DNA of 64,000 nt, taken from positions 3,071 to 67,070 of the forward strand of contig DASXUI010000320.1 of NCBI GenBank assembly GCA_036504955.1, in the 5' to 3' direction. Positions 2,611 through 38,541 of the stretch are shown here, piece by piece. The notes beneath the pieces are model-generated. The model searched no databases. It had not been told where the DNA came from and saw only the letters and a list, made by a program, of their open reading frames with translations. Numbering within the stretch: the stretch's first letter is position 1; every line of letters begins with the position of its first letter. This stretch comes from Armatimonadota bacterium. Its GTDB lineage: Bacteria > Armatimonadota > DTGP01 > DASXUI01. The translations under genes and the position numbers were made by a program.

Positions 2611-3252
2611 TTGCAGGAATACGGGGCATGGACCGATACTGAGGTGAGCCCCCGCCCGGGGCCTCAGGAGGGCCCCATACAACGACGATATGTAGTATCC
2701 CTGGCTCCCGAGCAACGGGAGTTGCTGGAGGCGGTGACTCAGCAAGGCCAAGCGGCAGCCCGAACCCTGACTCATGGTCGAATCCTGCTCAAGGCGGACA
2801 GCGGTCCTCAGGGGCCAGCGTGGTCGGACTGCGCCATCGCCGAAGCCGTGGAGGTGAGCCGCGCCACCGTGGAGCGCGTGCGTCAGCGCTTCTCTCAGGA
2901 GGGCCTGAGCGCCGCTCTGGAGCGTCGACCGCTGAAGCGGACCCGGCCCCGGAGCCTGGACGGGGCTCAGGAGGCTCATCTTCTCGCCTTGGCCTGCAGC
3001 CCCGCTCCTCAGGGACGGCGGCAGTGGACCCTAAGGCTGCTGGCCCACCAGATGGTGGAGTTGGGCTACAGCGACTCCCTCTCCCACGAGACCGTGCGTC
3101 GCACGCTCAAGAAACACACTGAAGCCTTGGTTAGTGGAACGCTGGTGTATTCCCCCCAAGCAGAACGCCGAGTTCGTCTGGCGGATGGAAGACGTGCGGG
3201 AGGTCTACACTCGTCCCTACGACCCGCGCGTCCCTCAGGTCTGCATGGATGA
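2611..3252 (+). CDS. IS630 transposase, N-terminal HTH part (orfA)
   Basis: Helix-turn-helix/winged-helix region (RQWTLRLLAHQM, ETVRRTLKK). Overlaps orfB by 118 nt in another frame, the usual IS630 programmed-frameshift arrangement. Confidence 0.8.
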   Translation: MQEYGAWTDTEVSPRPGPQEGPIQRRYVVSLAPEQRELLEAVTQQGQAAARTLTHGRILLKADSGPQGPAWSDCAIAEAVEVSRATVERVRQRFSQEGLSAALERRPLKRTRPRSLDGAQEAHLLALACSPAPQGRRQWTLRLLAHQMVELGYSDSLSHETVRRTLKKHTEALVSGTLVYSPQAERRVRLADGRRAGGLHSSLRPARPSGLHG

Positions 3253-3811
3253 AGCTAGCAAACAGCTCCCCAGTGCGATGCGAGAGCCTTCGCCGCCGAA
3301 GCCGGGGCGGCCTCGGCGAGAGGACTACGAGTACGTGCGAGAGGGCACGGCCGACCTCTTCCTCTTCTTCGAGCCTTTACGCGGCTGGCGCCGGGTCCAG
3401 GTGACCGAGCGCCGCATCCGAGCGGACTGGGCCCAGGCGATCCGCGAGCTGGTGGATGTCCACTACCCGGAAGCGGAGCGGATCGTGCTGGTGATGGACA
3501 ACCTCAACACCCATGGCCCGGCCAGCCTCTACGAAGCCTTCGCTCCCGAAGAGGCCCAACGCCTGGCCCAGAGGCTGGAGATCCACTACATCCCCAAGCA
3601 CGGGAGCTGGCTGAACATGGCGGAGACGGAACTCAGCATCCTCGCCCGCCATTGCCTGGACCGACGCCTTCCCTCCGCCGCTCTGCTAGAGCAGGAGGTC
3701 GACGCCTGGCAGCAAGAGCGCAACCAAGCCAAGGCCCGGATCGAGTGGCGCTTCACCACCGCCGACGCTCGCATCAAGCTGAAGCATCTCTATCCAGCAA
3801 TACTACTGTGA
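3134..3811 (+). CDS. IS630 transposase, DDE catalytic part (orfB)
   Basis: DDE-domain motifs (IVLVMDNLNTH, HYIPKHGSWLNMAE) characteristic of IS630/Tc1-mariner transposases. Confidence 0.8.
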   Translation: MERWCIPPKQNAEFVWRMEDVREVYTRPYDPRVPQVCMDEASKQLPSAMREPSPPKPGRPRREDYEYVREGTADLFLFFEPLRGWRRVQVTERRIRADWAQAIRELVDVHYPEAERIVLVMDNLNTHGPASLYEAFAPEEAQRLAQRLEIHYIPKHGSWLNMAETELSILARHCLDRRLPSAALLEQEVDAWQQERNQAKARIEWRFTTADARIKLKHLYPAILL

Positions 3812-3818
3812 CGCACCA

Positions 3819-4301
3819 CTAGGAGCACGAATCCGGCGAAATGCAGTGCTCCATTGCAGAGGCGTCATCAGTTCTCGCTAAGGCAGAACAGCCTAGCAGG
3901 TACGCTCTTGTTCCCGTCGAGCCCCGCAACTTCCGCAACCACTCCTCCCCAACGAACGTATAAGTCACACCTGATAGTTCACGCCACTGAAGCTCCAGAT
4001 TGTCCCCTTCGAGACTCACCCCATACTCATCGCCGTTGATGATGAGGGTCCAGTCGGTCACCCACGAATAGGTTCCCGGATGACCCCCCATGGGACCACC
4101 GGTCTGAACTCATCGCCCGTCTTCACTGAAGCTCCAGGTAGGTCTCCCCTCCAGCGATGCTGGCCGCCATACACCGATGATGGCTCGGCGCGGGTTTTGC
4201 CTCCGTATCCCCGTGATGAGTACACAAGACAGAAGAGTCACTAGCACCAGGCTGCCGATGGTCTCTAGAAGTCTGGCCGAGTAGGGCCGCAGCACAGCCA
4301 A
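3819..4301 (-). pseudogene. Truncated paralog of the zinc-ribbon/TM protein family (homolog of 26504..27019), abutting the IS630 right end
   Basis: Two ORFs (4301..4110, 4091..3819) in different frames together match the C-terminal half of the 217-aa protein at 26504..27157 (GVWRPASLEGRPTWSFSEDGR vs GRWKSFTLQDCPTWSFSDGGR; TYSWVTD, NLELQW). The zinc-ribbon N-terminus is missing, the frame is broken, and the C-terminus diverges and runs to the IS630 terminus. Confidence 0.5.
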
Positions 4302-6309
4302 CCAAGCCCCATAGGTCGTACCACTTAGTGAGCCCGGTGCACTAACCGCTGGGCTTGCTTGGGTGTACTGCTGCCCTTTTGGGCCGCGTTTCTAGGACCC
4401 TAGGTTGCTCAGAGCCATGGCTAGGCCAGACAGCAGCACCGCAACCGGGGAGAGGGTGCGCAAAATGGCAAGAGCCAGTCCACGCCCATGGCTGCGCACA
4501 GTCCGCTGCCATCCTAGGAAGCCCAGAACACTACCAACAAGCACCAGCTCAGCTTCTATCAGCCCCATGCGTAGGGCCGCCTCGGACTTGATCGGCTCAA
4601 TGGCTGTTTCAGAAGCGAGGGGCTATAGGAGCACCAGGGTGCTCCAGTGCCTACGCCTGGCCCAGCATTCGTGGGCCTTGGTTCCACCCATGCCAACGCC
4701 AAGGAGTAACCGGGCCGCTACCCTCCAGGCAGCGTAGTATGCAGTGAGATAACCAACGGCGCTCAGAGCTTCCAGTCATGGGCTCCACCGGTTGGCAAGG
4801 GAATCATACGGGTGCCCTTTCAGCGCAGTTAGGTTAAGGTACACATCCATGCCATTGACGAGGACCACAAAGCTGACGGCCGCGGTCAGCCAAGCCATCA
4901 TCCCGGTCCGAGGCACAGGCATCGGACTGACCCGGACTAGGCTACCTTCTGGGCCATGCTGGCGGGCGCTAGTCTGGATTCTGCCGCCGCCCCAGTCGAC
5001 GGCGCCTCGTGGAATCCTCCCGTGCGCAGAAGGCGGGGCCGTCCACTGGTCCTGCACCTCCATCGCGGCCCTTGGCGCCAAGGGCGTCGAGGTAGGGGCG
5101 AGGCCGCTCTGTCCCCGAACCCCTCGGTAACATGGGCTGAGGCGACAGGGAGGCGGCCCTAGGGGCGGATGCTCTGGCCCATGGAGGCATCGCCGAACGC
5201 TACGGCTCTGATGACCGGTCTGTGGCCGTGTCAGAGGTACGGACGATGGTTACGGAGGCGGCCTGTCATTGCGGCCCTAGCTCTGGTAGGTCGTGGTCTG
5301 AGGCGCGCGGTCCTTGGCTCCTCAGGAGGGCTTTGGCGGCAGAGGACCCATCAGCGCCAATGGGCTGGAGAGCAAGAGGTGGGGAATGCGAGCCGATCGG
5401 GCGCAGGCGCGGTTGGGCGTCGGTTTGGGAGTCAGGCCGAACCTATGCGGCTGCCCTAACGGAGGGACCTGAGGGCAAGCTTCAAGCTGAGCCGAAGGGC
5501 ATGGCATTGGGGGTCTCCAGCATAGGGTGTCCTCCTCGCAGAAGAGTGATTCGACCCGCACTGCTGGGCCATCCAGCGATCCTGAGATCCCTAGAGGGCT
5601 GCTGAGACCTGTGCCGCGGTGGGTCCCGCCGAGGTGATATCGGATTCGTGTACCCTGTTCCCCACCTTGCCGCCAAGCAGAAACACGATGGGAGGGCCCA
5701 ATCCGTCTTCCCATACGGGGAAGCTGAGGTCGCGGGTCGACCCCATCTACCTTCCTGGCTGCATCGAGCAACCCCGTGGTCACGGCGCTCTAGGCGTGCC
5801 CTCGGAACCCAGGCTCTGAACTCCTCAGGGGATCGTGCTGACCCGAAGTCAGGTTCGGCACGGCTAACGTTGAGGATTGGCTAGAGGGAAGCGGCCTGGT
5901 GTACCTGTCCATGAGGGAGGAGGGTGCCGAGGGCGGCAGAGCACCCATCTCTGCACGCGGGGTACCCCGAAGCCCTACCAGTTGTAACCACCGGGCCCAA
6001 GTCTGCCAGATCGTGGCGCAGAGCCGCCGCCCTCTACAGGTCCGCATGCGCTCTCCTGGCTCCCAAGGGGCCTGGATACCGACTGTTCGGATGGTTAAGT
6101 GGCACTCCAGAAGCTCCTATGGGCGGCTGGCGAGCGCTCTGGAGGCGGCTAGGATAAAGCTACGGGGGCCGAAGTCTCGGCCCGAACACTGGGGTAGCTG
6201 AGGCTGCGGTCAGGACGCTATATGATGTGCCATGATTCTGCCGAGGAAGAGCTAGAGGGCCATGGATGGGGGTTGGCCTTCTATCGGCCCCTAGCTCTGC
6301 CCTCGGGGA

Positions 6310-6639
6310 TCAACCATGGTTCCACCAGGCGCCGGCCCTAGCCACAAGGTAGAGGAGCCCACCTGCCACAGCAAGGAACGATGAGAAGGGGGAGTCTCCG
6401 TTCTTTGCCCCAACGAGCCCCATCAGCCCAAGAATGAGCATGAAGGTGCCTACCACCCTGAGTGCTTTCCACTCCTTGCCGGTAAGCTCCACTGGCGTAG
6501 CGCGAGGGGAGTTGCCCTTCGAAGCTGTAGGGCGTGCTCCAGTGATGGGACATCCACAGCGGGGACAGGTGGTCGCTGAATCGGAAACCTGCTGCTGACA
6601 CTCAGGCTCTGGACAGCTAATAATGCTCATGGGATTCAC
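6310..6639 (-). CDS. Small membrane protein with N-terminal zinc ribbon and two TM helices
   Basis: CxxC...CxxC motif (CPEPEC...CPRCGC) followed by two hydrophobic helices. GC3 is lower than the genomic background, so possibly foreign. Confidence 0.55.
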   Translation of the reverse strand: MNPMSIISCPEPECQQQVSDSATTCPRCGCPITGARPTASKGNSPRATPVELTGKEWKALRVVGTFMLILGLMGLVGAKNGDSPFSSFLAVAGGLLYLVARAGAWWNHG

Positions 6640-7714
6640 CCCTCGGTAAGGTAAGACGCTGGCAGCTTGTGCCTAATAGCTAAGCCCTCATTCGCTGAGT
6701 ACGGCCTGAATTCCTGTCCCGCTGAGGCAGCAAGCCACCCATCTCAACATGTGGGATAGGGCGCAGAGGGGCCCGAGAGACAGGGAGGGGCAGCAACAAG
6801 CATCCCAGGTTGGATGCCCTGGAGGGTGGGGGCGGGGGGCACTACCTGAGCCCAGGAACTGGGGTGTAACGGACAGAGGGGGCCCAGGAAGATAACTGCT
6901 GTTGCGAGGTGGTGCCTCTGGCTTGTCCAGATCGGTCAGTCACAGGGAAGATGGTGGTTCAGCCGCTGCTCCCACTGCTGTGGAACGGGAAGCCGGGCCA
7001 TCCCGAACAAGACCTCTACTTGGTGCCCAACAGCGCCATCTAGGTGCTGTGGGCCGGGACACCCCGGTCGATACGCGTTGTACACCACGGCACTCACTGG
7101 CCTTGCTCTGACCGTCTCGTCCGTAGGCAGCTTGGGGACTGTCATTGACCGCCCTAGACTCCCCCTACGAGGAACGGAGCGCACCCCGAACCACCTGCGG
7201 TTCGCCCATTCCCAGAGTTGCCGCGTTGCTCCCTTCACCAGGTGTGCTGGTTCTGCTGCACGAGCACCCAGTACGGCCTCCCATCACGCCAAAGGCCTGC
7301 CTCTCGCTGCTCGGCCTGGGCGGCAGGTTGTCGTGCGTCCCTTTGTCTTTGGTCGGCGGCGTCGCCTCCATGGTGCCCTACAGGTGGCAGAAGGTGCACA
7401 GGACGCTCCGGCCCTGAAGTGGCCGCCGGTCCGCGCTGGGCAGGAGCAAGACTGCCCTACGGCATGGGGACGCCTGACAACCACAGCTTCGTGGGTCGCG
7501 TGGTGCAAGGTGTGCTTCCCCTCCTTCCATTCAGACCCGAGCCTCCGGGGCCACCCTCTGCTGCGTGCTCGTGATCGTCAGCATAGGCGGCGCGGAGTGG
7601 CACCAAGACCATCTACGTCTAGCCGTGGCACCGATCATCTAGGCGGAACGTGGACGAACCGCTCCCCCTCGGCGCCTCTGCGCCGAGGGGCGGAGACAAC
7701 CAATCCTCAGTGGA

Positions 7715-7890
7715 TGGCGAGAACCGCAACCATATAGCTGGTGGTGAAAACCGCAATCCTATAACTGATGGTGAAAACCGCAATCCTATAACGGATGGTG
7801 GAATTCGCCATCCTATAACGGATGGTGGAATTCGCAATCCTATAGGGGATGTGGCAAACTGCCGTCCGATCGGGGATGGCCGCAAGGCCC
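7715..7890. repeat. Tandem array of ~27-bp repeats (about 6 copies, degenerating toward the 3' side)
   Basis: Units such as tgatggtgaaaaccgcaatcctataac repeat head-to-tail. There are no intervening unique spacers, so it is not a CRISPR array. The unit is AT-richer than the surroundings. Confidence 0.7.
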
Positions 7891-10800
7891 AGCCCCAGTG
7901 GGGTGTGTGACCCGGTCCGCGCAGGCGACGCCAGACCAGCGTCTCCTGGAGCGTGTCACACGCTTTGGCGCTGCCTGTAGGGCCAGAGGGCCGCCCTTGG
8001 GGCGCCGCCCGGTTGGGAGCAGTCTTAGCCTGGCTGGGGTGTCGGCAGCTAGCGCAAGATACTGCGCTTGCTCCACTGCCGGCTCGAGATTTGCTGATGG
8101 AAGTGCATAGCACGCTCAGAAGGGGATGCTGCCATGACCTCTCCCTAGGGGATGCTCTCTTTACGTCTCCCTAGTGCAGATCCCCGGAGTATCTGTGGAT
8201 AGTGCTCGCCTGACCGCACCGACGGGGCAGACTCCACCGCTCTGGGCATGTCGGCCGGTAAGCGTGCAGAGCCATGGACGGCTCTCCACAGGGTTGCCGC
8301 GTTTCTGCACTAGGGGGATGCGGCTCTAGTATCTCCATGGGGCACGGCTCCTAAGTGCCCGCGGGGGCTGTCCGAGCCCATCTCGAGGTCACCAAGGTCC
8401 AGCCGCGCCAACACCCAGGCAGATGCGTCATGCAGGGCAGGGCTCCAGAGCAATCTGCGGACCGGGGCCGCTAAGCAGATTGCTCACCGCACTCAACAGG
8501 CCAGAGCACGCTGGGGCAGGTTGTCTTTGTCAGTGGGCGGGGGCGGGAGCAGACTGTGCTCTGCCTGCTCCCCGGCCCCGTCGCCGCCGACCTGGAACCT
8601 CCATCTCTCCATGCGAGCCGGTCCTGGGCCCTAGTCTGCTAGCGCTCTTGGGCAGCCGCTAAGCAGCTATTGATGCGCCATGGCTCCGGAGGTGTTTCAC
8701 GCACTGCCGGTCCCAGACACTACCGGCCTAGGTCGTGACCCGATTCCGTTCCACGGCAACCATGTGTACGCCAATAGGCAGCTAGTTGTAAAACATTGAC
8801 CCCTCTCGTTGGTGACCGCCGCATTGGGGTTCCCTACACCAGACGGGAGCAGGCCAGTGTCTGTAGTGCCAATAGAACGGACGAATGGTTGGACAGACAG
8901 CCGATATGGAGGCAAAGCCCACGGCGTGCTCTAAGGGGCCTTCTAGTGGCAAACTCCATCGCGCCGCCGCCGATGGTGCCGCGTAGCTGCCGCCGCGATG
9001 GGCATGCGCCCGGGGGCATCTAGGGGCCCTGGCGTGGGGCAACGGTGCTGCGACATCGGTCAGCACACCACTTAGCGCAGCCCTGAGCGTGCAGGTGGGC
9101 GGGCGGAGATGCCAGCAGATCACTGGCTCTCAGTTCGCGATCGGGAAGGTGCTATCCGCGTTCAGGCTGGCGCCCTGGCCATGTGCACACCAGGCAGAGC
9201 GATGGACCACAGAGTAGCCATCCTGGTGTCAGGGAAGAGGAACCGGGCCAGTGCCTGCCACGAACAGATAGGCGGATAGGCGGCCCATGGCACCGCAGCG
9301 GAGGGCCCTAGGCCAGATTGCAGTGGCCACGACCACGACCCGAACCGACTGGCTATGGTCTGGCCCTAACGCGATTGCTGACCGCGGCCAGTAGGAGCTG
9401 GGCCAGCCTGCTGCTTGGGGCACCTTGGACACCTCCACCTCCTGGGTGTCCTCGCCCAAGGCGTCCCTCACCTCTCGCCAGTCACATCAGTGCCCCTACG
9501 GCGACCTCCCGCTGCTTGCCCGTGGCCCTTAGCGACGATCGCGCAGATTGGCACAGGGCCGGTCTGCACCAGGCCGGTGCTTTCCTCAAGCCGCCTAGAG
9601 GTCAGGTGATGTGCTGCAGGTGGCTGATCCCCCGTATCTCTGGGCTGTCGCTTGGTGCAGTTGTCCAGTGTGCCCTATAGCCGACGGTATGCTGCCACCG
9701 GCCGCCCTTCCTCTGTGCAATGGTTGCCTGCAGCGCGAGGGCACCCCTGTTCCGTTGCCGTCCCTGAGTACCCTAAGTACCGAGTGATAGAGGTTAGACA
9801 ACAAGCATTCGTACGTTTACGTAGGCATGCGGCCTAGTCCATGGCCGCAGGCAGGGCGGTGTTCGGCATGGCGGCACCGGGCACGAAGACCATACGCGTT
9901 GGACGAGGCGCCAACGATGGCAAGTCCATCCCCGTCGCCGAGGCTGAGAAGCGGAGGCGGACAGCGGTGGTCGAGACCATCAAGGTGCCCCGCCCGAGGA
10001 AGTAGGGATGCTGTGTCGCGGCGAGCGCGCGTCGAGGTCAGGGGACGGCGCCGCTGGTTTGCGATGGCCCCCCCGGTTTGTATGTAGGGCGCTGGGCACC
10101 GATAGACCGGCGTGGCAGGTCCGTGAGTTAGGATTACATAGGAGAGCGCGTGTAGCACCGCACTGCGGCCCCCCAAGCGGCTCCGAGGTCCCAGGGACAC
10201 CGGAAGCCATGGCTGCGGGCGCATCCGTGTCAGCGCCAGGGACGCGTACCACGCTCTCTTCGGAAGACGACGAGGGCGTCTGCCCTGATTCAGCCGCAGG
10301 CCATCGGTGCTCCATTACTTGGAGCGCCCTATCGCCCGGCCAGGATCCGGCCCCGCCCAGGGGTCCACGGCTGCTGAGGAGCCGCCCATACAGGGCCACT
10401 TCTTTGCTTCGGGCATACTCCACCGGACCCAATGGAGTGCCGACGTCGCTCGCGTTCCCGCTCCCGCCATCGCTCCGGAACCTGTGTCAGCGCTGGGCTC
10501 AGGTAACTGCCGCCTCGTCACCGGTGCTTGCGTGCGATGGCGCATACCACTCCGTTGCGCTGACCTCTGGTGCTGTGCCGCCCCCGTGCGGATCTAGGGA
10601 CGATCGCATCTAGGGCCATCCACCAGGGGGATCTGTCCATGATGGTTCACGCAGTACACCTGACCGCATCCCTAACGGCGGACGATCCCATCAGACGACT
10701 CGGAACGAACGAGGACTTGCCCTGTTGAGGCGTCTTCTGCCTGACCGACCATACGCGGCGGCATCCGCCGTCGCTGACGCCTTCGGGACCCTGATTCGCG

Positions 10801-13800
10801 TCAACGGGGGCGGCACCCCAGATGACGAAGCGCTTGCCGCTGCCTCAGACGTCCTCTGCAAAGGGCTCAACACTCTCCTCAGCAGCGTGGGACTGGCTGT
10901 GCGAGGCTTCGTCACTGAACCGCCCATCCTGGGCCGGCATTCGCTGGAGTGCGCGTCTGTAGGCTGGCATCTTCGCCGCGACACCAACATCATCCCCGCT
11001 GCCCCTCTCAGCAGACACAGATCGCCAGACTCAGTAACCGCGGCGAGTGAGGCACTACCGAAGGTGCGAGCCCTAGATGTGAGCTGTTTTGGTTCGCTCA
11101 CGTTGGGGTGGCGGCCAGGGTGCCGGCGATCCTGAGTTCGCCTGACAGGAAGTCCGTTGACGCGCTGCTCATCGGGGGTGGGTTCAACCGAAACGACATG
11201 CGCCCCGACGAGCTGGCCTTCGAGCTTCTTTGGCGTACCGTCTGTCTACGCGTCGAACCCCAGAACCTAGCCGTGCAGGGCTGCTTACAGGGGCGCCAGA
11301 GCAATGACGCCACTTAGGCCCGAAGGCCCGAGATGGAATGGGGCCGCAGTGCCGACAACCAGCACCCGTGCGAAGCCAACACTGTGGAGGACGTCCGCGC
11401 AGGAACGCCATGGGTCTAGCGCAATCCCCTTGGGGGCGTGATGGAGAGTACTGGCCATGGTGGGCCGTTGAGAAGACCTAAGTGAACGCCACTGGACCGC
11501 GTGCGCGCTGCTGTTTCGCCGACGCACTCCTCTCGAAGGCCTGGATCGGGCAGGCGTCGCTGATGGCGGCACTGCGCTACCGGGCACCGGCGGCTGCCGT
11601 GGCTGTCGCCCAAACCTCAACCGCTCAGTCATGGGCAAGAGGCAAAGAAAGGGGGGCTTGCATGCACTCCCAATCCCTCAGATGCTCTTCGCGGGAGCCA
11701 CGGAGGTACCCGGACTCGCCAGGGGCGGAGGTGCGGTCCAACCGGGTTGCATCCAGTGAAGCGGGCCGCGGAGTGACCGGCGGAACTGCATGGCCCGATG
11801 GGAGCAGCGCTCGACCAGCCGATAGCTTTGGGCCGTGCCGGCCGCATGCTGCTGTGGCCAGTCCGCATGTGGTATAGAACAATAGATAGGTTAATAAAAG
11901 CACGGTTCGGCAGGGCCTCTGGAGGGGAGCCACGTGGCTTAGCGGAGCGGGAGCAGCGAGGGGTGCGGGCGAACTGCTGGACCCACAGACTTGGGGTTGC
12001 GCACGGCTGATGCTCAGGAGCCAACACCAGGGGTCAGAGGTACGGCCTCAGGAGGCTTTCAGCTCCGGCCGTTCGCCATTGGCCTCCACCAAGCTCCTGA
12101 TCTGCTGACCAGGAGCTTAGGCGCCCATACTCCTGCTGGCCGATCGGCCTGGTCGTCCAGCCCTCGGCGGAGGCCTCCCTACCGACGTCCCCATGGGCCA
12201 AGGGACGCGACAGGGTGACCAGGCCGACGCTGCCATACGGCCAACGGCGGAGTGACTCACGGTAGATGCGGTCGCGACCTCCTGCCCGGGGCTGAGGAGT
12301 ACCAATACTCATGCGGCCAAGCGAGCTGTCAGGCTCACAACCCCGTCCCTTCGGGTTACATACTCCGCCGTGTTCTGGCGCCGCAGGGGGCCGGCCTCAT
12401 CGCCCTACTACTGAAGATACCTAGCGGCGATCTCGTAGACCGCCGTCTGACTCACCTCCTGGCAGGAGCCGCCAAGGTCTCGTGATGGATCTCGGACCGC
12501 CGCCTGCAACGACTTGGGAACGCGCCCACCTATGGTAACCAACTCTGTCTCGCATCGTGACGCATCAGGGGGTTTACTGGGGCAGGCACGTATCGTGCCC
12601 TCTACTGGCGCAGGTGGGCCCGTCGCTGCGCTTAGCTGGATGGTGTAGTCACCGTGATGGGCCCTGACCCTGAGGCCGGTCATTCCGTACTGACTCTGTG
12701 GTGATCTCGTCTATCCACCGGGAGGCAAAGCTGCTCATGCTGTCGATGGCTGGTAGCGGCATCCGGCAAGCCACAGCATGCTGCGGCAACGGCGACTGGA
12801 GCGCCGCTTCGGCACTCTGCCCCAATGGCGCGCTGCCGCCAGCCTCAAGGGTTGATCTCCTGCTGCCGCATGTTGTGCCTCCGTGGAGCGGCAATCGCCC
12901 ATAGAGTTGGTCTGCCAATTTGGGTGGGCGTGCGAGCCCCTTTGTGGGGAGATGCCGGGGATCCGGCCATGGGGCTTTCGGTGTACATTCGCAGCCGGCG
13001 CCGTGAACACCGACTCGCCCACGGAGGCGTTGGCCAGACACAGGAGGATTTCGCGCGCAGGCTGGGCATGGCAAACATACTACCTACTGGTGGGTGATAG
13101 GTCACTAACGACCAACTACGGACGGCCCCGAGAGCCGGCCGCAGCTCAGGGGTACCCTGTCTCGCGTGCTCCCCAAATGAGCAGGCGGCCAGGTCAGGCG
13201 TCGCGTCGGTCGTCCTCCTGCTTGGCCAGCTCCCAAGTGAGGGCATCCGCGAACACCGCGCCCAAGCCGAGTCTAGAAGAGCCTGAGCCCTGAACCGCAC
13301 GCCCCCAATGCGCTGCTGGGGACTCCCCAACAGAGGCTCCATTCACATGGACGACAAGCGTCGAAGTGGTTGGCCACCCGACTCACCATGCTGTGGCCCC
13401 CTCTAGGCACGTTCACTCGGGACCACACCTAGAGCGTGTCCGGCGAAGGATACCTAGTTGGGTAGAAGCCAACGGAGGTGATCCTAACAGATTGCTGCGG
13501 CGTCGCCGGCCCCTTCTGGAGCGCTCGAAAAAGGAGTGATTGGCTGACTGCGGTGAACACGCCCCATACGGCTGGTGCGGACCGACCGTGGGATGGGGGC
13601 TGCTCGTCGAGCAGGGGACCATCAACCTGTCGTTCAGACTCACTGTTTAGTCCGGCAGGGCGCAGGGGGACTCCACCCTGTTTGTAGCCATCCAGGGGCG
13701 TACCGGGTGTGATCCTTGGGAATCAAGATCGGGTCGTGTTGTGCGTGGCGGAGGGTGTGGGGGCTGCACCTGTGGTGGCGCAGCACAGGAGCACGATACG

Positions 13801-15300
13801 GGGGGGGGGAGCCCCGGCCACCATCTGTGGTTCAGCAACCGAATGGTGTTCTCCAGGTAGTGAGGGCGCTCATGATCGGGTCAGAGCCCTTGGGCCGTTG
13901 GCCGTGCACCGGATTGGTGGGGCCATTGGGTGACTGGCTGACATGGCCGCCCTCCGACGCATATGTGCTGGCTACCCCCCATCTGGTTCGCCAATCGCCG
14001 GGCCTGGAGTCCTCGGGCAGCGAACGCTATTCCTTCCAGGTGGGGCCACTAGGCAGGCTGGCGCTCCGCCTGGTAGCCTGCTGGGCGGCTCCTAGATCCA
14101 GCCCCAGGGGCTTAGTGGGCCAGCACCAATATGTGGCTCTGCGTTGGACACATGCCCCCGGGCCACCGTCCCCGCTGCCACTGGCATGGGCGAGTCAGGC
14201 ATGCGCAGAACGCCACGATATCGGTGACTCACCACGAATTGGCCTGGCAGGCATGGGATCACCGCGTTGTAACGCGACTTCCCAACGCGTGAGCGTCGGA
14301 GTCTGGGGCCAGCGTCGGATCGGGACCGAGCACCACAGGAGGCCGGACCTGCACCTGTGGCCGCAAGTGCTTCCGCTCTCCATCGGAGGGGAGTGACTCC
14401 GTAGGGGTGTTGTGGTGGCCGGGTGCCGCCCCAAACTCCAAGCCCGTGGCCGAGCCAGGCCTGAGGGTGGACCTGATAGGATTCCCCAGGTCCCCTGACG
14501 GGGTGCTGAGAGCAAACGCGCATCACCGGGTCTGGCCGACCTGCGCCACCCAATGTGTATTGGCACTGGCCTCCTCCGTGCGGGTTCGGCGTGGGTGGCC
14601 CGGCTGGCTCTGCTGTCGGTAGTCTGGGTGCCGCCCTGAGCAGCAATGTCACACAGAAGCTTCAGAGGGCTGCTGCGATGCCCTGCCTACGGGTTCTGGG
14701 GCTCAGAATGCACCCAGATGGCCCCAGCCCTGGGAGGCAACCCAGGATGCTGTCGAAGCTCAACAGGAAGCAACCAAGCAGTGGCGCTTCACGGCGACGG
14801 CCGGACTGTGAGACTACCCCGGCTCGGCTCGGTCCCCTGGGGCATTGCCAGTTGGGTACTGGCGATGACTGAGGAGCCGCCATAGGACCAGTCGGTGGCT
14901 GGCATCCTTGTCTCCCCCTCCGCGGCTCACGTCTGGTCTGAGAGGTGCAGAGAGTCCATTCCCCCTCCCTCGCCCTTGGCCGTGCTCCCTGCGACGGCCC
15001 GAACGCTTACATGTAGCTAGCATGCGAAGGCCGGAAGCGTCACCTTGAGGCCCTCAAGAGGGTGCTGGAGGAAGCTGGCGCGAGTGGGGAACTGCGGCTG
15101 TCGGACGGCGAGTGCACCTGCTCAGAGTGGCTTCTCAGGAGGCGAGCCCGCAGCGAGGGCCAGAGGGCCGTTGCATACGGAGTGTCAGAACAGGGCCGGA
15201 GGCGCCTAGGCCGGCGACCTCAAGGGAACGAGCCTGGACTCCAGGAAGCAGATACAGGCCGCGATTAGTGGCGCGAGGCGGGGAGCCACCCGGTGGGGCT

Positions 15301-15801
15301 TCAGCATGCCACCCTGGTCGTCGCTTCCATGCAGAACGCGAGCCACGAAGGTCCAGCCATTGAGGCGCGGCGGGGACCCAGCCAGGGTGATCGTGTGGAA
15401 AGGAGCCAGGTGGGCCGGGATGTCTGCATGATCTCCTGCTCGGTACGCGGCAGGGGCTTCATCGTGACGGGGCCTTGGGTGATGGTGATTGGGGCGAGGC
15501 TGTTATCAGGGTAGCGCACCTGCAGCTTGGCGATGATGCGGTTCAGCTTGTCTACTGCTGCCTGAAGGCGATTCAGCTTGTACTCGGGGATCTCGTAGGT
15601 GCCAACGAAGCTCTCCCCATCCGCCACAGCACTCCCAGCAGTGCCTGAGGCAGACTGAGGTGCTGCAGCTCCGTCAACGGGGAGTGCTTGCCCCAGACGA
15701 TGAAGCATGCGGTCGGCGCGGTCGGACTCTGCGTATCGCCCGTCGCGTTCCAGGCGCGTGCTGATGTCTACGAGGGTATGAGCAAGAACGGCAGTGGGCA
15801 T
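15301..15801 (-). CDS. Hypothetical protein
   Basis: Protein-like N-terminal ~125 aa with an RBS-like aaggaa 10 nt upstream of the ATG. The C-terminal tail is of doubtful quality. Lies downstream of the secreted repeat protein on the same strand. Confidence 0.5.
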   Translation of the reverse strand: MPTAVLAHTLVDISTRLERDGRYAESDRADRMLHRLGQALPVDGAAAPQSASGTAGSAVADGESFVGTYEIPEYKLNRLQAAVDKLNRIIAKLQVRYPDNSLAPITITQGPVTMKPLPRTEQEIMQTSRPTWLLSTRSPWLGPRRASMAGPSWLAFCMEATTRVAC

Positions 15802-15952
15802 GGCTGGTGGGTTCCTTTCGGAGGTTCTTTCCGATTAGGCCGAAGGCCACCCTACCTATGCCGGCACAGCGCTCATGGTAAAAAGGAAGGGCCGCCAGTG
15901 AGCATCTTCCTCACTGGCGGCCCAATCGAGACGGATTCGGTGTAAACGGGGT

Positions 15953-18109
15953 CTATCGGGCCGGAACCAGGCTCCACTCTGGGCCAGTGGACGGGAGTTG
16001 CTGCAGCCCCTGAATGGCCTCGCCAGACATCAGCCACACGCCGTTTGCTCCCGTGGCGTCCTCGTGCCAAAGGATGTCGCACTTGCCATCGCCGTTGTAG
16101 TCCGCGGCACGGAGCACTCGCCAGTTCAACCCGGCTGGGGTGGTGAGTGCGTAACGCTTGGGGGAGTCCCCGTTCATGAACCAGATAGCGTTCCCACCCG
16201 ACACGCTGTTGCGCCAGAGGATGTCGCTCTTCCCGTCACCATCGAAGTCGCCCACGCCCACGGGGGTGCCCCAGGCTTGGGCGGTGGAAGGAAGTGCCGT
16301 GCCGACTGCCACCTGGGCCCCCTTCATTAGCCAAACCGCATTGGGCCCGGCGGAATGGTGCCACAGTATATCCCCTGTCCCGTCTCCGTTGAAGTCTCCA
16401 ACGCCGGCCACCTGCCACCCTAGGTCGACTGATGGCAAGGGGGCGAACTCAACGGGAACACCGGCATGCATGAACCAGACCGAGTTGCCTCCAGTCCTGC
16501 TGCTTCTCCAAAGTATGTCATCGGTTCCGTCACCATCGAAGTCTCGAATGCCTGCCACGGACCACTGGGGGTCTGCCTGGATTATTGACACGTAGGCGTC
16601 CACATTGGCCGATGCGAAGGTCCAGATCCCATTCTGGCCGGTGCTAGGATCGCGCCATAGCAGGTCAGTCATTCCCTCGCCGCTGAAGTCGCCGGTGCCA
16701 ACCAGCTTCCATGACGGGGCCGCGAGGGGTAGCGCGGCTTGGGCCACCGCGGGATGGGTCAGCCAAAGAGCAAGGGAGCCTGAGGATGGGTTCCTCCATA
16801 GGAAGTCCTCAGCTCCATCGCCGTTCATATCCAATTCTGACCAAGGACTCTTAGTAGCTGTTGGGTCTCCGTTAGCCGCGAGCCTGATGTTCAGATGGTT
16901 GGTCTCACCGTCGCTTGTGTATGCGGTCGAGTCCCCCACCCCATAGCCCTGAGCTGAGGCGCTTACGCGTAGTACGGATTCCGGCAGGCCAACGAACCTG
17001 AACCAGCCTTGATGGTCTGCCAGCCCGTGCCACTGCTGATTGGAGCCCGCGTCCGTTATGTCAATCGTCGCATCAGCAACTGCTAGTTTGCTGCTGGCGT
17101 CCATGACCTGTCCTGTCACGGTACAGGACAAGCCGTCGCCCGGTGTTAGCGCGTCCCTTCCACGAGCCGGCACCAACTCAACACTTGGTCGCAACTCTGT
17201 GGACCCTTGGGACGTGTAGGCTGAGTGGCTGGCTTGGTTATAGCCCTGGGCGGTCAGACGAGTCGAGTACAACGTGCCTGGCAACCCGGCGATCCTGAAC
17301 CATCCATCGCTGTCAGTGGTCGCATGGCCTGCCACCGCACCGGAGCGCGAGTCGACAATGACGGCCATTGCATTCGCGATGGGCGCGTCAGTCCGTTGGC
17401 TCACCAGCCTCCAGCTAATGGTAGACAGGTCATAGCCGCTGGGTGCTGATGGATCGGTGCCATGAGCGCGGTCCATCGCCTGGTCTGACTCCTTTGAAGT
17501 CATGCCCTCGGATGTGTAGATACTCGTAGAGGATTGGTTGTAGTACACTGCTGTGAAACAAGCGTGGTAGGTTACTACGGGTAGGTTGGTGAACCGGTAC
17601 CATCCGTCCGAATCCGTGAGCCCCTCGCTCACCGCGTTGTTGGTGGCGTTGTTCACAAGAACTACCTTTGCGGCTGCGATGGGTCGCTGAGTCTCGCCAT
17701 CAACGACTCGGCCCGTCGTGGTTGCTCTGTCATACCGGCTGGGGCTGAGTGACTCGGGCCCATGCGCCGGATCCATCTCGATCTGATGCATGTCCACTGT
17801 GCCGCCGCTGCGAAGGTAGGCTGTTTCGCTTGTCTGGTTGAATCCCTGAGCCGTACAGCAGACACGACAGGTCCCTGTGTAGACGACCGTGATTTGGAAT
17901 CGACCAAGCGCGTCGGTGATGCCCTGGGCGATGGAGCCAGAGTCGACGTCATATCCCACGACGTTGCACCCTGCGATGGGCTTCTTGCTGTCAGCCGTGA
18001 CCACATGCCCGGTGATGGTGGAGGTGCTCTGCGCGTTGGCCCATCCACTTGCAGCCAGGACCAGGAGTGCTATGCCAACCACATGCTGGACTGCGTACCT
18101 CTGACTCAT
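15953..18109 (-). CDS. Secreted multi-repeat protein: N-terminal signal peptide, several CarboxypepD_reg-like beta-sandwich repeats, C-terminal FG-GAP/VCBS-like repeats
   Basis: Signal peptide MSQRYAVQHVVGIALLVLAASGWANA. Repeated GxVxDxxTxxPIAxAxVxxVd...SDGWYRF motifs. Repeated DFDGDGTDDILWR, DFNGDGTGDILWH, DFDGDGKSDILWR, DYNGDGKCDILWH (FG-GAP type). Single long ORF (718 aa). Confidence 0.85.
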   Translation of the reverse strand: MSQRYAVQHVVGIALLVLAASGWANAQSTSTITGHVVTADSKKPIAGCNVVGYDVDSGSIAQGITDALGRFQITVVYTGTCRVCCTAQGFNQTSETAYLRSGGTVDMHQIEMDPAHGPESLSPSRYDRATTTGRVVDGETQRPIAAAKVVLVNNATNNAVSEGLTDSDGWYRFTNLPVVTYHACFTAVYYNQSSTSIYTSEGMTSKESDQAMDRAHGTDPSAPSGYDLSTISWRLVSQRTDAPIANAMAVIVDSRSGAVAGHATTDSDGWFRIAGLPGTLYSTRLTAQGYNQASHSAYTSQGSTELRPSVELVPARGRDALTPGDGLSCTVTGQVMDASSKLAVADATIDITDAGSNQQWHGLADHQGWFRFVGLPESVLRVSASAQGYGVGDSTAYTSDGETNHLNIRLAANGDPTATKSPWSELDMNGDGAEDFLWRNPSSGSLALWLTHPAVAQAALPLAAPSWKLVGTGDFSGEGMTDLLWRDPSTGQNGIWTFASANVDAYVSIIQADPQWSVAGIRDFDGDGTDDILWRSSRTGGNSVWFMHAGVPVEFAPLPSVDLGWQVAGVGDFNGDGTGDILWHHSAGPNAVWLMKGAQVAVGTALPSTAQAWGTPVGVGDFDGDGKSDILWRNSVSGGNAIWFMNGDSPKRYALTTPAGLNWRVLRAADYNGDGKCDILWHEDATGANGVWLMSGEAIQGLQQLPSTGPEWSLVPAR

Positions 18110-18247
18110 GCCTGCCTCCCTCTATGGCCGACTGATGACCTGGTAACAGCTTCGGCATAGAACAGGCGAGTCCTAGTACGTACCTGGTGGATAGGGGGAG
18201 GTCTGCCCGTGAACCTACACCCACGGGCAGGTAGGGGAAGGGGGATG

Positions 18248-20264
18248 CTAGCCGCGGCCTCCAGCCTGAGCCAGCTTCTTGAGTATCTGGATGACCACCT
18301 GGGACACGTCCTGAGGCCGCTGGCGAATCGCTTCCTCCGTGAAACGAAGGACGGTCCAGCCCTGAGAGGCCAGCTCCATGTCGCGTCGCCGGTCATCGGC
18401 GATCTTCTCCGGCGAGTTGTGGAAGGTGCGACTATCGGCCTCCACACCCAGCTTGAGTTGAGGGAACGCGCCGTCAAGCTGGTATTGCTGGCCGGGGCCC
18501 GCAGTGTACTGGGCATAGAAGGCGTAGGGGATGTTGAGTCCCAAGATTGTGCGGTAGAGATCTTGCTCCAGGGTGGAGAAGAGCTGCCGCATGCGGGCCT
18601 GGTCGTCGTTCTTCCCGCCCTTCGCTGCTGTGCGGGTGGCAACGCGTTGATGCGCGTGCTGGTGGTAGTCTTCGGCAATGGCGTCGGCGTTTAGCGGAAG
18701 CGCCAGGTCTCCGCCGTCCACGGGACCACCGGCCCTCAAGGGGAAGATGTCGTCCATCTCCTCGGGAAGCCGCTCCATGTCGTAACCGCGGCCCGCTGGA
18801 GGTACGAGACTCTGGAGGTAGCCTGCGTGCACAACGCTTTTCATGTGGGGTTGCTTGCCGGCGAAGCGACGGTTCAGGTCACTCGCGAAGCGCTGCTTGG
18901 CCCGTTCCTGAATCTCCTGGGCCGCAGTGATGGCCTGGCGGTAGGCGGATTCCGGGTTGTCGACACCAGCCGCCATTTGGGGCATCCCACCGGGAGCGCC
19001 ACCAGGAGGGCCTCCCATTGGAGGCATCCCAGCGGGAGCGCCACCCATGGGGGGAGGGGGAGCCATGCCGCCCATCTCCTCAGGTCCACCAGGCATGGGT
19101 GGAGCGCCGGCACCCATATCGCCGCCCGGTCCCATGGGTGCCCCTCCTCCATAGCCGCCACCAACTCCACCCATGTCCGGTGATGCGACAGCGGTAGCTG
19201 CCTGCTCGTATCGCAGTCGCTCAGCTTCCTGGTCGTAGTCGATGTCTAGGGCCTCCAGAACGGTCCGGGCCGAGATGATCCCCTGCTGGAGCCCCTGCAT
19301 CATCACCTGTAGCTTGCCGGTGTCGTCGCGGAGCTGGAGGTCGTCCCACTTGATCTTGGGGTAGACCACTTCCTCTTGGCCGAGCTTACCCGGCACCGTG
19401 AAGCCGTTCCAGATGGCGACTGGCTTGAGGACCTTCTCTTCAATCCAGTAGGCGACTTACATACGCAAACGCTCCAGGCGCTTCGCCATGGTGACCAACC
19501 CCACCTGGGCATTGGCCTTTCCGGGTCCCTCCGAGTTGAGGATCTACTTGTTGAGCATGAGACCGTCGATGGTCTCCTGCTCAATCTGCTCGAACTCATT
19601 GGTGAAGGTGAGGACCTCGCCGCTGGCCCCCACGTAGTCGAGGTTGAAAGCGAAGTGACCGGTAGTCGAGGGCCCCATGCCGGTACCCGAAGTAGGCGTC
19701 GATGGGGCCGGTGAAGACCACCCTGTTGGCCATCGCTCCAAGCTCATCCCTCTCGCTGGGGAAGTCAACCCCAAGCTGGACGTTCACTCCGGCCAGCAGC
19801 TCCTCGAGCGTCGGGGTGTAGCCGAGTGAGGGTACGCCTTCCCAGCGATCCAAGTCTGGGTAGTAGCGGTCGTTCATCGTCAGGCGGATGGGGATCCGCC
19901 GGGAGATGCTGGCGGGAAGCTCGGAAGGGGACCGGCCCCATTGCTCTCTCGTGTAGCCCTCGATGGAAGTGCGGTAGATGCCCGAGCCCGCCTGAGAGAG
20001 CGACCATCCCTCCAAGTTGCGTGGCAGAGGGTAGGTCTCACGAACTGCCCCAAGACGTTCCTCGGCCTTTTCTGGCGTGGCGACGCCCCAGAGTCGGTTG
20101 AGAGTCAGGAGGTTGATGGGGAAGGGGTTCAGCCGGTCGCCATGTCGGACCTTCACCCTGAGAGAGAAGTGGTTGAGGTCCGTCAACGGGTTGACATAGC
20201 GCCATACCCGCTCGCTGGCCGTGTGGAAGACGTGAGTGGAGCCGAACAGGCCGGCTCCCACCAC
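18248..20264 (-). pseudogene. T7-like head-to-tail connector (portal) homolog, N-terminally truncated, interrupted by one frameshift and two in-frame stops, with a C-terminal DUF559 (Vsr-like endonuclease fold) domain
   Basis: Segments IPIRLTMNDRYY, FTGPIDAYFG, SLRF-AFNLDYVGASGEVLTFTNEFEQIEQETIDGLM and a Gly/Met/Pro-rich tail resemble the T7 gp8 portal as I recall it (IPIRMVRLDGESYG, RLSFAFMLNSAVQRTGERVTAEEIRYVASELEDTLGG, G/M/A-rich C-terminus). Frameshift near 19650. In-frame TAG (~19545) and TAA (~19462). The C-terminal 120 aa (QYQLDGAFPQLKLGVEADSRTFHNSPEKIADDRRRDMELASQGWTVLRFTEEAI) matches the DUF559 signature. Confidence 0.6.
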
Positions 20265-20424
20265 CGGGTAGTCGTACTTCGGGGAGTTCGTGCCGGCCCT
20301 AGACAGCTACCAGGCTGGGATGCCCTGCCTGAGGGAGTCCTTCTCAGCGGGGAGGTCATGCCGAAGACTACAAACAGGCAACCAAGTCCGGCACGTTCGA
20401 AGGTGGCAACTGAGAGGAACTTCC

Positions 20425-21639
20425 ATGCTGATTACGAAGCGCGGTGCTCCCTTGCTACTCGTGGCGATGGTGCTGTGCCAGGCTAGATGCACTGAGGCTG
20501 CGTCAGCCGCCAAGCCCCAGGCGAAGCAGGCCAAACGCCCTCATCCACAAGCCGTGAAGCCGCTACCGCCCCAACTGATGAGCGCCAAGCAGGTCTTCGC
20601 CAAGTTCAGGGGGGCGGTGGCGACGGTCGTGGCCGACATGAAAAGCCGAGCTACCGGTGTCGTCGTGAACGGTGAACTACTTACCAGCTACCGAGCCATC
20701 GAAGGATCCCGCTCCATCGTAGCGACGTTTCCAGGCGGTACAACGGCGCGTCTGGAGGGTATCTCCCGGATCAACAGGGCCCTTGATCTCGTGGGGCTCC
20801 CAGTCTGGAGCGGCGAGGTGCTGGACAAGATCCCCCCAATAGCCCTCCTGAACCAAACGCGAGCCGTGGACCTTCCATCGGTGGGCGATCAGGTCACGGT
20901 GATCAGCAGCCCTCAAGAGGCAGACCAAACGCTTAGTGAGGGTATAGTGGCGGGCGTGCGAACTGTTGATGGCAACACCTGGTTTCAGCTCTCTATCCCG
21001 CTGACTTCAGGAACAAGCGGCAGCCCAGTGTTTGACCGCTTCGGTGATCTGATCGGCATCATCACCTCGGCGGTCAAGGCAGACCCCCCAGTGAGTTTTG
21101 CCGTGTGGATCTGGGATGTGGCGACGGCTCCTCCGTCTGTGCCCATCTCCCTCATCTTGAACACTCCCGCTGACTACGATGACGACCCTGAGATGAAAGC
21201 CTTGACCATGGAACGGAAGCTTGACCGTCTCCATAACGAACCTTCATTGATTGGCCTGCGGAACTTCGGCCTCTACGCGATTGTGTCTGAGGATGCGGAC
21301 AAGCAAGACTTCGCGCGTCGAGTGGCAGATCGCCTGAAGCAACGCGGGATCACCATAGACCCGCTACATACGGGCCCCAGAATGGCGGATATCAATGTGA
21401 CCGTAGTGCGTGAGAACACAGATGACCCAAAGGAGAAGCCAGGGGAGTTCAGCGGTTACATCGCGAGGGTGGTAGTGAGCCAGAGGGTGGCAGTCTGCAC
21501 TCCGGTCAGGACTTACCTCTCGGCTGACACTTACTTCGTGGGCAAGGGTGGGCGTGGCACCCGCCAGCAGGCTTACGATGCTGCACTAGTCCTCGTTGAC
21601 CAGTTCTGCGACGCATATCACAGGGCCAACCCGCAGTAG
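20425..21639 (+). CDS. Secreted trypsin-like (S1/Trypsin_2-fold) protein with a C-terminal extension; the catalytic His motif appears to be absent
   Basis: RBS gagagga before the ATG at 20425. Signal-like N-terminus MLITKRGAPLLLVAMVLCQA. Fold motifs GVVVNGELLTSY, DLVGLPVW, GTSGSPVF (Ser and Asp positions present). No His occurs where TNAHV is expected. The tracked ORF starts at 20290. Confidence 0.7.
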   Translation: MLITKRGAPLLLVAMVLCQARCTEAASAAKPQAKQAKRPHPQAVKPLPPQLMSAKQVFAKFRGAVATVVADMKSRATGVVVNGELLTSYRAIEGSRSIVATFPGGTTARLEGISRINRALDLVGLPVWSGEVLDKIPPIALLNQTRAVDLPSVGDQVTVISSPQEADQTLSEGIVAGVRTVDGNTWFQLSIPLTSGTSGSPVFDRFGDLIGIITSAVKADPPVSFAVWIWDVATAPPSVPISLILNTPADYDDDPEMKALTMERKLDRLHNEPSLIGLRNFGLYAIVSEDADKQDFARRVADRLKQRGITIDPLHTGPRMADINVTVVRENTDDPKEKPGEFSGYIARVVVSQRVAVCTPVRTYLSADTYFVGKGGRGTRQQAYDAALVLVDQFCDAYHRANPQ

Positions 21640-21895
21640 CCCGGACACAGCAATTGCCTGCAGGCTGCCGGTGTTGGGGGCTCCCTACTCCGACGTACAG
21701 GCCGGCTCCCACCACCAGATAGCCGTACTTCGGGGAGGTCATGCCGTCCTTACACAACCACCAGGCCGATGATGCCGCCAGTCGCCAGCCATTACCACCT
21801 AGAGGAGAGTCGAGTGTCAGAAAGAACCGCTGAGTAGACGACTGCGAGCAGATGATGTCTAGTCTTCTCACACCGACCTGGGAGCGTAGACAGAC

Positions 21896-22525
21896 ATGGA
21901 TGACCCCGAAGTACAGCGAAAGCTTCTGTTGATGGTTCTGCTGTTTGGCGGCATCTTCGCCTATGCGTTGTTCGAGACTGCGGCCAGAGCCAAGCCCCCC
22001 TCTGTGAGGGAGCCCAAGCCCAGTGGTCTCCCATCCTTCACCACTGGCCTTGCGCCTCACCGCGTACTCCGCTTCATAGTGCAGTTCGCTCCGCCTAACG
22101 GGTACAGCGTGGCGGCACTAGATGAAGAGGTACAGGCCATCGTCCTCAGCTCTGCCCGCTCCATGAGCAACCCCTTCGGCCTGTTCTACTCCATCTACGT
22201 GACGCCGACAGAACAGGGCAGCCTCCTGGAGGTGAAAGCAGTCGATAAGCTGCCCTCTCGCCGCTTGTTCTGTCATCCGAACCCACAGCCCATGATCGCC
22301 AGCCTACAAGCAGCTCTGTTTGCTGCACTTCCAGACACCCCTCGGTCGGTAGCCCCGAAAGCCAGTAGTCGGCACCAAATGACCACCCAGCGTGGGGCGA
22401 GTCCAGTAGAAGCTGGTGTGGACCTCCCAGATGGCCCCTGGACTTGCGGGAAGTGCCTCACCGACAACCGTGCAGGGGCCGCCACCTGCGAGGAGTGCGG
22501 ACGGCCCCCCTACGCCGACGTCTAG
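21896..22525 (+). CDS. Membrane-anchored protein with a C-terminal RanBP2-type zinc ribbon
   Basis: N-terminal TM helix LLLMVLLFGGIFAYALF. C-terminal WTCGKCLTDNRAGAATCEECG. Confidence 0.55.
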   Translation: MDDPEVQRKLLLMVLLFGGIFAYALFETAARAKPPSVREPKPSGLPSFTTGLAPHRVLRFIVQFAPPNGYSVAALDEEVQAIVLSSARSMSNPFGLFYSIYVTPTEQGSLLEVKAVDKLPSRRLFCHPNPQPMIASLQAALFAALPDTPRSVAPKASSRHQMTTQRGASPVEAGVDLPDGPWTCGKCLTDNRAGAATCEECGRPPYADV

Positions 22526-31880: not shown

Positions 31881-31891
31881 TCTGATCGGCT

Positions 31892-31911
31892 ACTGTTGCC
31901 TGTAGCAACCG
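31892..31911. repeat. Left copy of the 20-bp inverted repeat ctgttgcctgtagcaaccgg
   Basis: Perfect 20/20 reverse-complement match to 37354..37373. Lies 10 bp outside the left inverted repeat of the IS701 copy. Confidence 0.6.
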
Positions 31912-31920
31912 GGCCTTTTC

Positions 31921-37353: not shown

Positions 37354-37373
37354 CGGTTGCTACAGGCAACAGA
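37354..37373. repeat. Right copy of the 20-bp inverted repeat (reverse complement of 31892..31911)
   Basis: ccggttgctacaggcaacag. Lies 180 bp outside the IS21 copy-1 terminus. Confidence 0.6.
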
Positions 37374-38452: not shown

Positions 38453-38541
38453 GAGACCAACTCCTCGTAGTGGCTCAGGGGTGGCACGGTCACGGCCTCC
38501 GCCGCCGTCCACTGCAGCGCGGGCTGAGGCGGTGGGCTCTT

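Follow-up and report, generated by a model that had tools for sequence, protein, structure and literature searches.

Coding sequence usually makes up 85-90% of a bacterial genome, and multi-kilobase non-coding gaps are rare. The decaying genomes of Mycobacterium leprae, of recently host-restricted symbionts such as Sodalis and of bacteria rich in insertion sequences (IS) such as Orientia have multi-kilobase tracts that lack both open reading frames (ORFs) and detectable homology and that lie beside recognizable pseudogenes and many IS. Reportedly, Cole et al. found in 2001 that about a quarter of the M. leprae genome is non-coding and may include remnants mutated beyond recognition. Here we describe a similar situation in a 64,000-nucleotide (nt) stretch of DNA from an uncultured Armatimonadota bacterium (assembly GCA_036504955.1, contig DASXUI010000320.1, positions 3,071 to 67,070 of the forward strand), which was analysed in its entirety and is hereafter called the window. 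About 15 kb of the 64-kb window is non-coding, non-repetitive, unstructured, compositionally uniform and without detectable homologues. The tracts concerned, desert A (3785-15426) and desert B (47430-53316), were first noticed in a preliminary description made from the sequence, which reported three gene-free intervals at about 4.3-6.3, 8.1-15.3 and 47.4-53.3 kb and offered three options for them: heavily decayed island genes, large non-coding RNA (ncRNA) or structured regions, or assembly problems. Random-like DNA accounts for about a quarter of the window.

Each of the closest described systems shares some, but not all, of these properties. M. leprae-type decay differs in that here a single 64-kb piece is known, the flanking genes are intact and no functional orthologues were found that would establish a coding origin; most of the desert tract, moreover, lacks even codon periodicity, a state well beyond that of typical M. 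leprae pseudogenes. The long intergenic regions of Borrelia plasmids and the non-coding regions of the low-coding-density genome of Haloquadratum walsbyi contain repeats, recognizable gene fragments and conserved RNA motifs and are AT-rich or compositionally unlike genes, whereas the deserts are non-repetitive, homogeneous and as GC-rich as genes. Two reports describe unusually long non-coding stretches and fragmented genes in those prokaryotic replicons (PMC2674063, PMC3119063), a property shared with the window. The window also resembles tRNA-integrated islands and integrative mobilizable elements: a tyrosine integrase gene adjoins tRNA-Thr, and Rep_trans and serine recombinase genes occur together with several IS. 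Coding density is usually high in such elements; here, in contrast, about 6 kb directly downstream of the rep gene, the expected place for transfer or cargo genes, is empty, and no attachment-site (att) repeat was found in the window. The loci of the OLE, GOLLD, ROOL and HEARO RNAs are likewise non-coding, and gene callers either skip them or assign spurious ORFs to them. With lengths of 0.3-0.8 kb, those RNAs are strongly structured and conserved, unlike the deserts, which extend over 6-11 kb with neither an Rfam match nor excess folding stability.

Absence of coding signal and homology

We delimited desert A with a frameshift-tolerant codon-usage dynamic programme applied to the whole window, taking it as the tract that contains no strong coding segment save a patch at 11081-11311. 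Strong coding segments covered just 45% of the window, and none fell within 3785-11080, 11312-15426 or 47261-53346. The first two intervals named in the preliminary description belong to one tract of approximately 11.6 kb, broken only by a pseudogene (3954-4199) and a small gene (6313-6639), and all three proved real, as judged by flat GC across codon phases, weak period-3 signal and shuffle-like ORFs. Per-codon-phase GC was flat (maximum minus minimum below about 0.1) over approximately 3.6-15.0 kb and 47.1-53.0 kb. In the clear genes of the window, GC at third codon positions (GC3) was 0.75-0.88, in agreement with the earlier contrast between genes with a GC3 of about 80% and unbiased deserts. 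Fourier power at period 3 was 1.0-2.8 times background in the deserts, including the full extent of desert A, compared with 10-38 times in genes.

The core of desert A (8100-15300), on which the preliminary description had focused, lacked periodicity and had ORFs and k-mers like those of shuffled sequence. We counted 341 stop codons, against 352±14 in dinucleotide-preserving shuffles; the longest ORF had 227 codons (253±46 in the shuffles), and the number of ORFs of at least 100 amino acids (aa) in the deserts matched the shuffles as well. In 120-nt windows, phase contrast was 0.144 for 8100-15300 (0.126 when shuffled) and 0.128 for desert B (0.128 when shuffled), compared with 0.25-0.38 in genes. 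Because the contrast at this scale is the same as in shuffled sequence, no real genes are hidden by frequent frameshifts. The frameshift-tolerant score amounted to 11.5 per kb in the desert, 36-50 per kb in genes and 21 per kb in genes given one indel per 50 nt. The earlier suggestion that correcting indels could restore normal gene density fails here: there is no local periodicity left to restore, and the frameshift-tolerant model recovers almost nothing.

Six-frame translation of 8000-15400 with stops masked gave no Pfam match, and among ORFs of at least 100 aa in 4.4-8.1 kb and desert B the sole Pfam match was the zinc-ribbon gene at 6313-6639. The longer ORFs of 9.3-11.9 kb yielded nothing in PHROGs or NCBIfam. 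Ordinary gene remnants, which the preliminary description thought frameshift-aware searches might recover throughout, were not found within 8.1-15.3 kb by six-frame Pfam, PHROGs or NCBIfam searches. At the nucleotide level, blastn in a sensitive 'distant' mode found no match among plasmids (7.3 Gb) or phages (2.3 Gb), and an exact 41-mer search of viral contigs found none either. The gene callers used for the Joint Genome Institute (JGI) and Logan assemblies placed more than 15 'hypothetical proteins' in 8100-15300, and all of those checked are singletons in a 15-billion-protein collection; the NCBI Prokaryotic Genome Annotation Pipeline (PGAP) apparently called almost none of these ORFs.

At the Rfam gathering threshold, tRNA-Thr was the only match in the window. 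The covariance-model scan for ncRNAs proposed in the preliminary description was run down to E<=1 and returned none in 3800-15400 or 47300-53400. Mean folding z-scores on the two strands, relative to shuffled sequence, were -0.48 and -0.34 for desert A, -0.14 and -0.14 for desert B and about 0 for genes, and a scan of 3800-15300 revealed isolated hairpins only, near 4250, 6200, 7700 and 10250. With nothing in Rfam even at this permissive threshold and folding near that of shuffled sequence, the option of a large ncRNA or structured region finds no support. No repeats were detected within or between the deserts, and inverted repeats and spectral peaks, which were also sought, were absent beyond short tandem arrays. 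Repeated k-mer counts of 8100-15300 and desert B equalled those of shuffles, and promoter-like and terminator-like sites were not in excess in the deserts. Apart from the short arrays, the deserts lack the recurring units that characterize repeat-based loci such as CRISPR, integron cassettes, REP/MITE arrays and satellites.

The window has a GC content of about 63%, contains no Ns, and recurs in other assemblies. Positions 5953-21595 are 100% identical to Ga0376481_000594, a contig of JGI metagenome 3300035523 that spans the window from position 1 and extends about 36 kb beyond its left end; this identity holds throughout 8100-15300. Positions 21639-41821 differ by one mismatch from JGI contig 000670. 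A Logan contig, from an independent assembly of run SRR11794808, is 100% identical across 8287-13809, and the proteins of the window recur on a 67,859-bp NCBI third-party contig of a metagenome-assembled genome (MAG) labelled Armatimonadota bacterium (for example HEY3282999.1, locus VGN26_12060). The sole assembly seam, at 21596-21638, joins two JGI contigs and is distant from both the reported interval and the deserts. As different assemblers yield an identical sequence for the interval, an assembler artefact or an indel-rich consensus is unlikely.

Residual codon usage and shared composition

A frameshift-tolerant test detected a codon-usage signal in 8100-15300, with z=4.8 against dinucleotide shuffles and z=3.0-3.8 against a second-order Markov null under three codon models, in which 0-1 of 100 nulls reached the score. 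This weak residual signal was mostly confined to 8.1-11.4 kb (z of about 2.5 for 8100-10600). The remainder of the core, 11400-15300, was without any residual coding signal (z 0.8-1.3 against the same null and codon models), and z was approximately 0-1 in desert B. On the forward strand, a faint putative gene remnant at 9754-11616 is made up of codon-usage segments in differing frames, the best of which are 10704-10994 and 11081-11281. Its codon score of 14.7 compares with a shuffle maximum of 14.3, its translated pieces are protein-like in look, and a search of 5.8 billion proteins with the portion at 10.7-11.3 kb returned nothing but the ORF itself. When we simulated decay of the neighbouring coding region at 21.6-29.9 kb, its score per kb fell to that of desert A once approximately 30-50% of its sites had been replaced at random and indels introduced at one per 50 nt; simulated decay by indels only retained z=9.7.

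The deserts are close to one another in composition. GC was 0.649 in 8100-15300 and 0.643 in desert B, with a standard deviation over 200-nt windows of 0.026 in 8100-15300, at or below the binomial value of 0.034; the dispersion in desert B was likewise at or below expectation. Karlin delta* among the two halves of desert A and desert B, which lie 32 kb apart, was 25-32, equal to the sampling-noise floor, with values of 25-29 between B and A, compared with 55-141 between deserts and genes; the gene-gene mean was 64, and true intergenic spacers were intermediate at 47-61. CpG was 0.76-0.80 in deserts versus 0.85 in genes, CpA/TpG 1.23-1.24 versus 1.11, and GpA about 1.0 versus 1.13. Avoidance of CATG, GATC and CTAG was present in genes and absent in deserts. 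A single shared neutral equilibrium would give deserts A and B a common composition distinct from that of genes.

Origin of the deserts

We lean, if not strongly, towards explaining the deserts as neutrally evolving, non-functional DNA, most likely mobile-element or island genes that were inactivated long ago and eroded; we infer the former protein coding, great age and neutrality of this DNA rather than observe them. In such a course of events, integrated mobile-element genes and island cargo would have lost their activity long ago, after which substitutions and small indels would have worn away reading frames, codon periodicity and homology. Base and dinucleotide composition would meanwhile have relaxed to the neutral equilibrium of the lineage, at approximately 64.5% GC, CpG of 0.76-0.80 and CpA/TpG of 1.23-1.24. 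The region would work as a mobile-element graveyard, in which insertions keep coming and the debris is not cleared by deletion. We favour this explanation because the window contains a graded series of decay, running from a truncated and duplicated UDP-galactopyranose mutase (GLF) gene through the pseudogene at 3954-4199 and the faint residue at 9.75-11.6 kb to the signal-free tracts. The match with simulated decay, the composition common to both deserts, their random-like statistics, the mobile-element setting, the abrupt borders at element ends or gene breakpoints (47429, 53317 and about 15427) and the precedent attributed to M. leprae all point in the same direction. The deserts are ordinary in kind; their extent and degree of randomization are unusual for a bacterium.

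Several considerations weigh against erosion of former genes. Within 8.1-15.3 kb there is no protein-family homology in any frame, so past coding is not demonstrated, and the residual codon signal, besides being weak and patchy, is missing from both 11.4-15.3 kb and desert B. Strong deletion bias is usual in bacteria, which makes the survival of about 15 kb to the point of randomization surprising. Functional genes adjoining the deserts remain intact, and several of them appear to have moved recently, so that the ages would have to be very uneven. An equilibrium GC equal to the genome mean beside a GC3 of 0.8 would require that GC3 be shaped by selection or biased gene conversion, as we assume. 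The searched collections contained no relative of the flanking genes. Among the options offered in the preliminary description, heavily decayed genes is, weakly, the best supported: the faint signal at 8.1-11.4 kb, the pseudogene at 3954-4199 and the mobile-element setting speak for decayed island genes, while the expected ghost homology did not appear in 8.1-15.3 kb. If decay is the cause, it has gone past recognition and is not 'simply decay' in the sense of that description, which envisaged ordinary remnants recoverable throughout.

The strongest competitor, though we think it unlikely, is that the deserts never coded and are imported non-coding passenger DNA, carried between mobile elements or acquired from a donor rich in non-coding sequence, with the same type of source for both. 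Import would suit the lack of residual coding signal in desert B and 11.4-15.3 kb, the dinucleotide signature that A and B share and genes do not, the absence of the palindrome avoidance seen in genes, the abrupt borders at mobile-element ends and inside an ORF, and a desert GC of 0.645 with no downward drift, unlike the GC3 of 0.8. However, the intergenic spacers of the contig are intermediate in signature, which makes that of the deserts a fit for native non-coding DNA; desert A retains a weak coding residue in part and includes a pseudogene whose family is present locally. The plasmids and phages searched yielded no donor sequence, and multi-kilobase non-coding tracts are rare in bacterial donors. 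A function as non-coding DNA, whether as long ncRNA or antisense RNA, spacer or insulator, nucleoid-organizing DNA, or a stuffer for Rep_trans replication or packaging, with the arrays serving as protein-binding sites, strikes us as improbable. The DNA persists against deletion bias, its GC is unusually uniform, and short tandem arrays precede both deserts (7713-7844 and 8121-8174; 47327-47409 and 47787-47949), all of which a function could explain, but the arrays at 47327-47409 are accounted for by IS21 terminal repeats. Such a role also has to be set against the lack of Rfam matches at E<=1, mean folding z-scores of -0.1 to -0.5 with isolated hairpins only, and the lack of any repeated motif, k-mer enrichment or excess of promoters or terminators. 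Slightly less credible again is the idea that the deserts are one distinct kind of never-coding DNA, made or carried by mobile elements beside a tandem protein-binding array and kept for a role at the DNA level; in a milder form of this idea, they would be true long-term neutral DNA and a rare direct readout of neutral equilibrium composition.

An artefact of assembly or sequencing, in the form of a chimeric join, collapsed repeats or genes scrambled by an indel-rich consensus, is very improbable, although the DNA comes from a metagenome, one sample probably underlies all three assemblies, and the two JGI contigs are joined at 21596-21638 beside a duplicated gene fragment. The deserts lie far from that join at 21.6 kb and show no repeats within or between them; across the finding, both the JGI contig and the Logan contig match the window with 100% identity, and the proteins on the NCBI contig are identical too. 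Neighbouring ORFs of 718, 705 and 513 aa are uninterrupted, and since 120-nt windows lack periodicity and the frameshift-tolerant model is near-empty, correcting indels cannot restore genes. On these grounds (no repeats, identical JGI and Logan contigs, intact flanking genes), the assembly problems suspected earlier find no support. We consider cryptic coding just as improbable, be it in many very short genes, under an alternative genetic code or in orphan genes that became pseudogenes recently and have no database relatives. Many real neighbouring genes are indeed orphans without a Pfam match, and a real small gene (6313-6639) lay hidden in desert A, but period-3 and phase composition, which depends on neither code nor homology, was absent at every scale tested, and stop codons occurred at a random rate in all six frames. 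Recent pseudogenes, moreover, would retain codon bias, as the indel-only simulation did (z=9.7).

Two ideas were rejected. An alternative genetic code is at odds with the lack of a period-3 signal in a test that is independent of the code. A synthetic spike-in or mirrored sequence would retain periodicity and would not adjoin real genes in three assemblies.

If the deserts are old neutral DNA, this Armatimonadota lineage tolerates junk for a very long time, which would imply weak deletion bias or weak selection. They would then offer a natural neutral reference (64.5% GC, CpG depleted, no palindrome avoidance) for comparison with the GC3 of about 0.8 in genes, and such a comparison bears on the long-standing question of whether selection or gene conversion, and not mutation, keeps bacterial GC high. 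Their value as a possible neutral reference is modest. The spurious hypothetical proteins called in the deserts are a warning for counts of orphan genes.

Borders, internal features and neighbouring elements

Desert A is flanked on the left by an IS630-family transposase gene at 2611-3811 on the forward strand (ORF 2611-3252; DDE_3, E 1e-24, for 3134-3808). At its right boundary, an orphan ORF on the reverse strand (15301-15801) has protein-like sequence between 15801 and about 15427 and continues for approximately 40 codons into the desert; NCBI annotates 15301-15627 as VGN26_12060. As this ORF turns from protein-like to desert at about 15427, the junction is a breakpoint and not a gradual fade. 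With the exception of one weak repeat match, the ORF has no relative among 1.84 billion representatives. Beyond it lies an intact gene on the reverse strand (15953-18109) for a 718-aa CarboxypepD_reg/FG-GAP protein, which is identical in the NCBI Armatimonadota MAG; its intactness indicates that the sequence here is not error-ridden. A search for syntenic relatives found no orthologue of the FG-GAP protein in genome or metagenome contigs or among 5.8 billion proteins.

Within desert A, the reverse-strand pseudogene fragment at 3954-4199 contains an in-frame stop ('DGR*VQTGG') and matches the C-terminal part of ORF 26504-27157 by tblastx (47.6% identity over 82 aa, 90.9 bits). The small gene at 6313-6639, also on the reverse strand, is probably intact and encodes 109 aa with a zinc ribbon and two predicted membrane helices (PHROG 6586, E 5e-6; Zn_Ribbon_1, E 2e-4). 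Its codon score exceeds that of shuffles, and PHROG 6586 has no assigned function. These two features and ORF 26504-27157, all on the reverse strand, form a local family of small zinc-ribbon and transmembrane proteins; ORF 26504-27157 has no Pfam, PHROG or NCBIfam match. A tandem array of 4.9 copies of a 27-nt unit (GATGGTGAAAACCGCAATCCTATAACT) lies at 7713-7844, bordering the reported interval on the left, and another of 2.1 copies of 26 nt lies at its start (8121-8174). The first array may be iteron-like or protein-binding; JGI called a spurious 164-aa repeat 'protein' over it.

Desert B extends from the right end of an IS21-like element, at its terminal repeats (47429), to the stop codon of the Rep_trans gene, at 53317. 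Its left edge carries a tandem array of 3.7 copies of 44 nt (47787-47949), each unit with a CCACC(N14)GGTGG inverted repeat; this array resembles an iteron or operator array and lies 5.4 kb from the Rep_trans gene. That gene, on the reverse strand at 53317-54315, encodes a replication initiator or relaxase-like protein that shares approximately 25% of its residues with MobT relaxases and with Rep proteins of the inovirus type. Genome contigs contained no orthologue of it, and these relatives of about 25% identity are too distant for synteny. A tyrosine integrase gene (56011-57156, forward strand) adjoins tRNA-Thr(CGT) (57265-57337, reverse strand), so that 56011-57337 forms an island edge. An integrase beside a tRNA gene, together with Rep_trans, the serine recombinase and IS630, IS4/5 and IS21 elements, identifies the region as an island. 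When the 3' end of tRNA-Thr was used to look for an att direct repeat, no 18-26-nt match with 1-3 mismatches was found elsewhere in the window; the far border of the island may lie outside the window or have decayed. The segment 53317-57337, comprising the divergent Rep_trans gene, a gene for a 424-aa orphan, the tyrosine integrase gene and tRNA-Thr(CGT), looks like a very divergent integrative element.

The IS21-like element at 42216-47429 has imperfect inverted termini (42216-42269 and 47376-47429) and internal 24-nt direct repeats at 47327-47409. It holds an IstA-like gene (45719-47260, reverse strand) and, unusually, a gene for a 705-aa large serine recombinase (43261-45378, forward strand) where istB would be expected. 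The mobile elements of the window include IS630, an IS4/5-like transposase gene and two IS21-like sets. An IstB-like ATPase ORF at 37643-38956 on the reverse strand has a longest reading of 437 aa, with approximately 180 aa before the IstB domain, whereas the JGI product has 269 aa; either the start codon is uncertain, or the gene shares sequence with the end of istA through overlap or fusion. A 5.3-kb segment with two orphan genes and a fusion of glycosyltransferase-2 and AAA_33 kinase is bracketed by inverted repeats (31720-31961 and 37304-37544) that measure about 240 nt and are 74-78% complementary; it may be a composite mobile cassette. Two N-terminal fragments of GLF, at 19596-20264 and 21506-22060, flank a gene for a trypsin-like protease and share an 85%-identical 73-nt repeat (20243-20315 and 21694-21766), where two JGI contigs end.

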